A stretch of 7,773 bases of DNA, taken from Candidatus Heimdallarchaeota archaeon (lineage in GTDB: Archaea > Asgardarchaeota > Heimdallarchaeia > Heimdallarchaeales > Heimdallarchaeaceae). The position numbers and the translations under genes are program-made. Location of the stretch: the NCBI GenBank assembly GCA_023270155.1, contig JAGLTB010000100.1:1-7773 (forward strand). Reading direction: 5' to 3'. Position 1 is the stretch's first letter; each line of letters begins with the position of its first letter. The notes below the pieces were generated by a model. That model was not told where the DNA came from, did no database searches, and worked only from the letters and a program-made list of their open reading frames with translations. This document shows positions 104-224 of the stretch, in pieces.

Positions 104-224
104 GTTAAGTCCTTCAACGTGTGGCTTTGTACTAAGTTCCGCGAGGGCTTGGGAACAGCCGTTCGCTGCGATGCGTCGCGGCCATAGTGAAGGGGTAACA
201 CTCAGACTCATTCCGAACCTGAAA
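104..224 (+). rRNA. 5S rRNA with circularly permuted gene order: 3' half (104-171), UGCG tetraloop cap (172-175), 5' half (176-224)
   Basis: Conserved 5S motifs read on the + strand but in swapped order. 3' half: GTTAAGTCC (104-112), GTACT (129-133), CC-GCGA-GG loop D (139-146), GGGAAC (151-156), GTTC loop A (161-164). 5' half: GCCATAG (181-187), loop C ACTCATTCCGAAC (206-218), CTGAAA (219-224). Hand-folded helices: helix I 165-171/176-182 (7 bp, one G.U). Helix II 187-193/111-118 with a single bulged A116. Helix III 201-205 with 219-222 plus G104, leaving an AA bulge. Helix V 123-126/157-160. The region is GC-rich against AT-rich surroundings. Confidence 0.8.

Follow-up and report, generated by a model that had tools for sequence, protein, structure and literature searches.

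To our knowledge, 5S ribosomal RNA (rRNA) occurs universally, and its gene is taken to have one fixed order in all cellular genomes, an invariance on which standard annotation tools rely. The closest described systems are of several kinds. In Thermoproteus tenax and T. uzoniensis the gene for the signal recognition particle (SRP) RNA is permuted, and experiments have demonstrated that the tRNA splicing endonuclease cuts its transcript and that a circle results (Plagens et al. 2015, PMC4731332). Permuted 5S genes are known from the mitochondria of brown algae and other stramenopiles, for which the mtPerm-5S model was built (Valach et al. 2014, PMC4267664). Archaeal 16S and 23S rRNAs are released through a bulge-helix-bulge (BHB) motif formed by leader and trailer, which the endonuclease cuts and whose products are ligated into a circle; the ribosomes of some lineages contain this circle or a permuted derivative of it. 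A 2026 paper describes this circular processing for 16S and 23S "but not 5S rRNAs". Here we analysed a contig of 7,773 nucleotides from a Candidatus Heimdallarchaeota archaeon (JAGLTB010000100.1, assembly GCA_023270155.1; the whole stretch is called the window below) and we describe in it a circularly permuted 5S rRNA gene at positions 104-224 of the + strand.

A circularly permuted 5S rRNA gene

We observed that the conserved parts of a 5S rRNA follow one another on the + strand with the 3' half (104-171) first, then a UGCG tetraloop (172-175) and then the 5' half (176-224). The 3' half begins with GUUAAG (104-109) and comprises the 3' strands of helices III and II, helix V, loop E, helix IV with a GCGA loop D (141-144) and the 3' strand of helix I. 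The 5' half holds the 5' strand of helix I, loop A, the 5' strand of helix II, loop B, helix III and loop C, with GCCAUAG at 181-187 and CUGAAA at its end (219-224). Helix I consists of 7 base pairs (bp) between 165-171 (GCUGCGA) and 176-182 (UCGCGGC), including a U167-G180 wobble, and the tetraloop that caps it takes the place of the natural 5S termini. A first-pass annotation, made from the letters of the sequence, had described this order, this helix with its UNCG-type loop and new ends at the AA bulge of helix III, between CUGAAA and GUUAAG. The coordinates in the sequence agree with it on each of these points.

The whole window was compared with Rfam 15 at gathering thresholds and gave no match, 5S_rRNA (RF00001, gathering score 38 bits) included. 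At a relaxed threshold the native order returned RF00001 below threshold, with 21.5 bits over 84-174 in a forced global alignment, and an E-value search of positions 1-400 listed only this 5S match and a chance match to SNORD101. The two halves were then searched separately with Infernal as end-truncated matches, so the following scores are those of halves and not of the rotated sequence. Positions 178-224 correspond to model positions 5-51 (27.2 bits, E = 1.6e-4, 3' end cut) and positions 104-169 to model positions 52-115 (21.2 bits, E = 8.7e-3, 5' end cut). The two matches abut at model position 51/52 with a gap of 0 and an overlap of 0, and their scores sum to 48.4 bits, above the gathering score, with the pair terms of helices I-III that run across the halves excluded from that sum. 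RF00001 fails on the linear order because the gene is permuted: there is no linear full-length match of at least 38 bits, and all model positions are present after reordering. The same holds more widely, since a search of 18 related loci at gathering thresholds, each with a permuted copy, returned tRNAs only and no 5S. This is the behaviour that the first-pass annotation had foreseen for a linear covariance model, namely half or weak matches.

It had also described the rotated sequence as a canonical 5S of about 120 nucleotides (nt). Both the rotated sequence and the closed 121-mer adopt the three-arm 5S shape de novo, and the total length after rotation is 117-121 nt. The 5S core is a G+C-rich island, with 54% G+C against ~33% for the genome. 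The arrangement was sought in related genomes and found there in ~50 independent copies with compensatory changes. For the analysis of covariation, 28 sequences were aligned with their flanks. Across the permuted 5S fold and the flanking helices 94.9% of cells are paired, and in 33 of the 55 pairs both partners vary; a control in which the partners were slid by 1-3 columns brought pairing down to 31-45%. Within the 5S body, helices II-V have 88-100% of cells paired and both-side changes in 15/31 pairs, helices IV and V among those that covary. An unguided RNAalifold run on 34 distinct cores returned the same structure with compensatory changes in 16/31 pairs, rising to 32/48 when the flanks were included.

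Helix II lies between 187-199 and 104-118, its 3' strand (110-118) now stands upstream of its 5' strand (187-194), and it covaries strongly across the swapped halves, with variants such as AAGGGG/UCCUUC, GCAGGG/CCUGCC, UCAGGG/UCUGAC and CGGAGG/CCUCCG. All copies have one of the loops UGCG, UUCG, UACG and UAUG at the end of helix I, and its closing pair A171-U176 switches in a compensatory manner to C-G or U-A; in no copy is this helix made from free 5' and 3' termini. A covariance model (R1) built from the permuted cores found exactly one copy per locus and rejected four chance matches. On the window it gave 146.7 bits over exactly 103-223, a score that is not independent because the window is part of the seed.

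Compared with canonical archaeal 5S rRNA (RF00001), loop A, helices II-V, the AA bulge and loop C (CAUUCCGAAC) are all conserved. The same is true of GUAC and UGGGAA, the motifs of loop E, and of loop D, which is GNRA-like. The difference lies in the order, with the 3' half preceding the 5' half, and in helix I, which is a closed hairpin instead of paired termini. Positions 104-224 are a circularly permuted 5S rRNA gene. We hold it, with near certainty, to be a functional permuted 5S gene.

Flanking helices and a predicted circular product

What the first-pass annotation had seen of the locus, the permutation, stood; it had missed a flanking stem with a BHB-like motif, promoter- and terminator-like elements and the distribution of the arrangement across a whole clade. 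The promoter-like element comprises CCAATAG (14-20) and a TATA-like A/T-rich box, ATTCAAAAA (25-33), on the + strand ~25 nt upstream of the leader stem. In an upstream alignment of ~45 loci CCAATAG-N4-ATTMAAAAA is conserved, and Baldrarchaeota carry TTTTTATATGG at equal distance upstream, which suggests that 14-33 acts as a promoter. At the other end, a T-rich run, TTCTTT (236-241, + strand), directly follows the stem and shares its first base with the last stem pair. It reads TTTTTT in most relatives, its position is conserved in the aligned trailers, and it is probably an archaeal terminator.

The leader (55-65) and the trailer (226-236) pair to form what we take to be a processing stem. Between 56-65 and 226-235 both partners vary in all 10 of 10 pairs, with 89.6% of cells paired; RNAalifold recovered the stem de novo, with G55-U236 in addition, and it is also present in the minimum free energy (MFE) fold of the precursor. 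Next to this stem, CGGG (97-100) pairs with CCUG (218-221), which the mature fold uses for helix III. This central helix has 100% of cells paired in the alignment and 4/4 pairs in 47/47 complete copies, with CAGG or CGGG opposite CCUG and, in Baldrarchaeota, a covarying CGUG/CACG. It is followed on the 5' side by the bulge AAA (101-103; AAA in 46/47 copies, AUA in 1/47) and on the 3' side by the bulge AAA (222-224; AAA in 39/47, GAA in 8/47), which are the predicted 5' and 3' cleavage sites. The 4-bp helix between 3-nt bulges on opposite strands is intact in 47/47 complete copies. In tRNA introns, likewise, each bulge of a BHB lies 3' of its own strand of the central helix. By its predicted pairing, 97-103/218-224 is a BHB-like motif, and the BHB is the target of the archaeal tRNA splicing endonuclease (PMC4731332). 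Two groups of copies have the textbook shape: in Baldrarchaeota a 12-bp stem directly abuts the central helix, and in one type of Heimdallarchaeum paralogue (L028/L034; L numbers denote our loci) a 5-bp GUGGU/ACCAC helix does so.

Several observations weigh against equating the motif with a standard BHB. In the window and most Heimdallarchaeota copies, the 5' strand has 31 nt (66-96) between the outer stem and the central helix, so that the motif in those copies is a three-way junction and not a textbook hBHBh' (a BHB between two further helices). A continuation of the helix at 95-96/225-226 is paired in 48% of sequences and was rejected as a conserved helix, and the 5S body stands where the motif would have its inner helix. 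There is also an alternative 4-bp central helix, in which UCAG (66-69) pairs with CUGA (219-222) and abuts the outer stem. This conformer 1 has 90.9% of cells paired with little covariation; its 3' bulge would be 223-225, and the 3' cut would be shifted by one base if it were used. Forced folds place conformer 1 at 0.1 kcal/mol and the conformer with 97-100 at 2.5 kcal/mol from the MFE. The latter is the sole one that yields the canonical junction in every lineage. Its pairing of 97-100 with 218-221 excludes helix III (202-205/219-222), and since either central helix uses helix III bases, processing and final folding would have to be sequential.

Within the intervening 31 nt, Heimdall-type copies carry a leader hairpin at 74-94, with a 7-bp stem (74-80/88-94) and the loop AUGCGUU. 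Both-side changes are seen in 6/7 of its pairs, 94.9% of its cells are paired and RNAalifold finds it de novo; possibly it provides the endonuclease with an outer helix. The loop is near-invariant in all Heimdall-type copies, and the hairpin is absent from Baldrarchaeota. Of the further ideas tried on this region, none explains why the loop is so conserved. An extension of the hairpin at 69-71/95-97 has 67% of cells paired and was rejected as a conserved helix. A 7-bp pairing of the hairpin loop (81-87) with 116-122 of the 5S was rejected on uncompensated variants in L031 and L045. The GAUGCGU common to the hairpin loop and the helix I loop is treated as a coincidence, with no covariation between copies. 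A two-step model, in which a circle of 72-224 forms and the hairpin is then excised as a mini-intron, fits the window but not leaders of the L017 and L018 types and is speculative.

Taken together, these elements suggest the following route. Transcription of the unit from 14-33 to 236-241 would give a precursor of ~185 nt, made up of leader, 3' half, UGCG loop, 5' half and trailer. Pairing of 56-65 with 226-235 would draw the ends of the 5S body together, the tRNA splicing endonuclease would cut both bulges (101-103 and 222-224), and an RtcB-type ligase would join A223 to A103, leaving helix III unbroken with its AA bulge. The product would be circular because helix I is already closed by the tetraloop: a covalently closed 5S of 121 nt (103-223), which would enter the ribosome as a circle. 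Symmetric cuts and ligation retain three bulge nucleotides, CCGAACCUG-AAA-GUUAAG, and give the canonical helix III junction in 47/47 complete copies. Predicted products read CCGAAC-CUG-AAA-GUUAAG in the Heimdall type and CCGAAC-ACG-GAA-GUCAAG in Baldrarchaeota, with circles of 121 nt (122 nt in two copies) and 125 nt, respectively. The two copies with 122 nt are the metagenomic L063 and L065, in which the region of loop B has gained 1 nt (GGGGUUUAC, GGGGUUAAC). In the window the ligation junction is predicted as ...CCGAACCUGAA joined to AGUUAAGUCC..., and the 30-mer CATTCCGAACCTGAAAGTTAAGTCCTTCAA can be used for finding junction reads. We consider the chain of events up to and including cleavage at the BHB-like motif and ligation to be likely.

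One alternative accepts the permuted gene and proposes that the mature 5S stays linear and permuted: the flanks would be trimmed or cut and the two ends in helix III left unligated, held together by pairing and by ribosomal proteins. The permuted 5S of stramenopile mitochondria does stay permuted in its final product (PMC4267664), and the ends here fall in a paired region (202-205/219-222 and 104-105/198-199) that could hold a nick. Such an outcome would make it hard to explain why a covarying leader-trailer stem and a 4-bp helix with 3-nt bulges are kept in 47/47 copies, and why ligation would produce the exact canonical junction. Cleavage products of archaeal BHB motifs are, moreover, normally ligated. 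The Thermoproteus SRP RNA is impaired in protein binding if it is not circularised (PMC4731332). We regard an unligated product as unlikely.

A second alternative keeps the circle as an intermediate only, to be reopened at the helix I loop to canonical ends as for the permuted tRNA of Cyanidioschyzon, and a pathway of circularisation followed by cutting is documented for permuted tRNA genes in work that PMC4267664 cites. In the present gene, however, the natural ends are joined by nothing more than a 4-nt UNCG-type loop, which sits on a 7-bp helix rich in G+C. The copies agree in the class and length of this loop, and their closing pair varies in a compensatory way, a pattern that indicates selection for a stable closed hairpin and not for a spacer to be cut; nor is there room in the loop for a second BHB or another known cleavage signal. 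The conserved, stable tetraloop argues that the predicted circle would not be reopened at the natural ends, and we hold reopening to be quite improbable. That the 5S stays circular in the ribosome is the outcome we lean towards, with somewhat less confidence than we place in its formation.

Permuted copies in related genomes

To find relatives, we used a permuted-only pattern, GTACT-N16-TGGGAA...CAYAGYG...YCGAAC, in which 3'-half motifs precede 5'-half motifs at short distance; its expectation in shuffles of the window was 0.00. One genome per species was scanned, and relatives are pattern matches only, so that absence elsewhere in Asgard archaea is uninformative. The scan returned 29 loci, nearly all labelled Candidatus Heimdallarchaeota and 2 of them in metagenome-assembled genomes (MAGs) of Baldrarchaeota. 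The closed genomes of Ca. Heimdallarchaeum aukensis and Ca. H. endolithica hold two permuted copies each. Among metagenome contigs of the Joint Genome Institute there were 26 pattern matches, 22 of them real and 4 due to chance; the latter (L053, L056, L066 and L071) lack 5S features, give no match to the permuted model and were rejected.

The arrangement itself is real. The window forms one end of a metagenome scaffold. A stretch of 300 bases at this locus recurs with 100% identity in at least 6 assemblies, which stem from separate samples and were made by different pipelines (ENA scaffolds, the NCBI MAG GCA_030673745.1 and NCBI metagenome contigs), and a Logan contig from an unrelated run has the same region at 98% identity. 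Contigs do end in or just upstream of the 5S, at window positions 1 (L002/L008), 115 (L014), 167 (L015/L016), 178 (L004/L009) and 195 (L013), and two scaffolds stop exactly at position 1, inside the junction with a TnpB-like insertion. These ends look like branching of the assembly graph at conserved or repeated sequence, and contig breaks in rRNA genes are common in metagenome assemblies. The locus might instead be no working 5S, having arisen in assembly, decayed to a pseudogene or taken on another role as a paralogue, with a canonical 5S elsewhere. This reading draws on these breaks and on the limited part of the window's genome that can be read, and it is largely refuted and highly improbable in view of the identity among independent assemblies, the ~50 copies from different species with compensatory changes in every helix, the two copies in each of two closed genomes where 5S prediction had failed (PMC8813620), and the canonical-order 22-mer CATTCCGAACCTGAAAGTTAAG, which had 0 matches in a collection of 241 million metagenome records where the permuted gene is present.

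The closed Heimdallarchaeum genomes were assembled from Nanopore and Illumina reads, and their authors were unable to predict any 5S gene (PMC8813620). Together with the missing canonical-order 22-mer and the lack of 5S matches in the 18 related loci, this makes the permuted gene very probably the only 5S gene of these organisms. Against this stands the fact that ~20 kb of the window's genome is readable, so that a divergent canonical 5S elsewhere in it is possible.

Heimdallarchaeota and Baldrarchaeota share the break point and the tetraloop-closed helix I, and on that ground a single origin of the permutation is proposed. We slightly favour the full reading that the ribosomes of both groups hold a covalently closed 5S, spliced from a permuted gene and inherited from a common Asgard ancestor.

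Some copies call for separate mention. In the two closed Heimdallarchaeum genomes the paralogues (L028/L034 against L030/L037) have unrelated leader and trailer sequences; both types keep the stem, central helix and bulges, and one type only has a canonical outer helix by the 3' bulge. L029 (JBHLQZ010000003.1) is labelled Candidatus Thorarchaeota, and its 5S, leader hairpin and flanks are near-identical to those of the Heimdall-labelled L038. It may be a mis-binned contig or carry a loose label, and it provides no evidence for a Thorarchaeota trait.

The genomic surroundings vary among the loci. A divergent tRNA gene lies ~100-130 nt upstream of the 5S leader in L017, L018, L020, L021, L025, L028, L031, L034, L035 and L045, and it is tRNA-Ser(GCU) in the four tested with ARAGORN (L017, L020, L028 and L035). 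The tRNA and the 5S may share a bidirectional promoter region that includes the intergenic CCAATAG...ATTAAAAA element. ARAGORN found no tRNA in the window. In L001, which belongs to the window's own genome, a segment of ~2.1 kb (4624-6886, directly upstream of window position 1) lies between tRNA-Ser(GCU) and the 5S. It contains an open reading frame (ORF) of 644 amino acids with a Cas12f1-like TNB domain, TnpB-like, which scores 30.2 bits (cut-off 26.3). In comparison with the close relative L035 the tRNA segment of L001 is inverted, and a 21-bp stretch (L035 1437-1457) is found at both borders as inverted copies.

Downstream of the 5S, the window encodes a YccF-family membrane protein (310-687, - strand), a weak match to DUF5752 (845-1192), an RPA-like OB-fold protein (1203-1859, - strand), a MiaB-like radical-SAM methylthiotransferase (2017-3324) and then DNA gyrase B followed by gyrase A; the called GyrB start lies 9 nt after the GTG of its ORF. 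An ORF at 296-730 (+ strand), antisense to YccF, is probably spurious. There is no 16S or 23S rRNA gene nearby in window 310-7773, and the 5S is unlinked from 16S/23S.

Comparison with known systems

Genome-quality standards for MAGs ask for a 5S gene. The permutation explains why none had been predicted in the Heimdallarchaeum genomes, and the permuted model provides a working search tool. In a search of the full-text literature outside subscription journals, no archaeal 5S was described as permuted or as processed through a BHB. The principle of maturation has precedents; its use on a ribosomal RNA, and across whole Asgard phyla, would be new. Gene-level permutation rescued by the tRNA splicing machinery would thereby be extended from tRNAs and one SRP RNA to rRNA. 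If the proposed route is true, a circular RNA is a stoichiometric component of the ribosome, 5S assembly with uL18 and uL5 starts from a closed molecule, and this is the first rRNA that is obligatorily circular through gene order. The Asgard lineage is placed closest to eukaryotes, which have a canonical 5S. Permutation is a discrete and rarely reversible character in Asgard archaea, and a map of it over the lineages, Hodarchaeales especially, bears on relationships at the origin of eukaryotes.

In mtPerm-5S, as here, helix I lacks termini and standard models miss the gene. The mitochondrial form differs in that only helix I is replaced, by a 5' hairpin; its ends lie at the alpha/gamma three-way junction, the beta domain comes before the gamma domain and the product is linear. 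In the archaeal gene the break lies inside helix III, the whole gamma domain comes ahead of the beta domain and a BHB-like motif is found in the flanks. No organellar 5S family was among the two Rfam matches listed at E up to 10 for positions 1-400. Unlike the permuted 5S, archaeal 16S and 23S genes are canonical in order, and permutation, where present, arises in the RNA.

Covalently closed molecules derived from 5S have also been detected in archaea, as circular 5S isoforms in Halobacterium and Sulfolobus by circular RNA sequencing (PMC12558985, citing Danan et al. 2012). In contrast to the product predicted here, these isoforms derive from genes of canonical order, their junctions vary and lack a BHB, and they are regarded as intermediates of degradation.

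Permuted tRNA genes also occur in Thermofilum. Those of Cyanidioschyzon merolae resemble the present gene in having the 3' half first, BHB-type processing and a circular intermediate, as far as the account cited in PMC4267664 goes. The tRNA circle is reopened at its natural ends by RNase P and tRNase Z, whereas the 5S has a tetraloop without a spacer at that place.

A close parallel is the Thermoproteus SRP RNA. Both are universal structured RNAs whose gene had been reported missing; in both the 3' part precedes the 5' part, the natural termini are closed, leader and trailer form a BHB, or here a BHB-like motif, by the new ends, and a TATA-like box stands ~25 nt upstream. The reversed halves with joined termini are found in the window, and so is a 4-bp helix with 3-nt bulges on opposite strands. 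The outer helix is continuous with the central helix in Baldrarchaeota and in L028/L034, and in the window the two are separated by 66-96, most Heimdallarchaeota copies having the conserved hairpin between them. For Thermoproteus the pathway is established by experiment, and here it is predicted from sequence. The RNA concerned is, in the present case, a component of the ribosome, and the permuted gene extends over two Asgard phyla and ~50 copies, compared to two Thermoproteus species.

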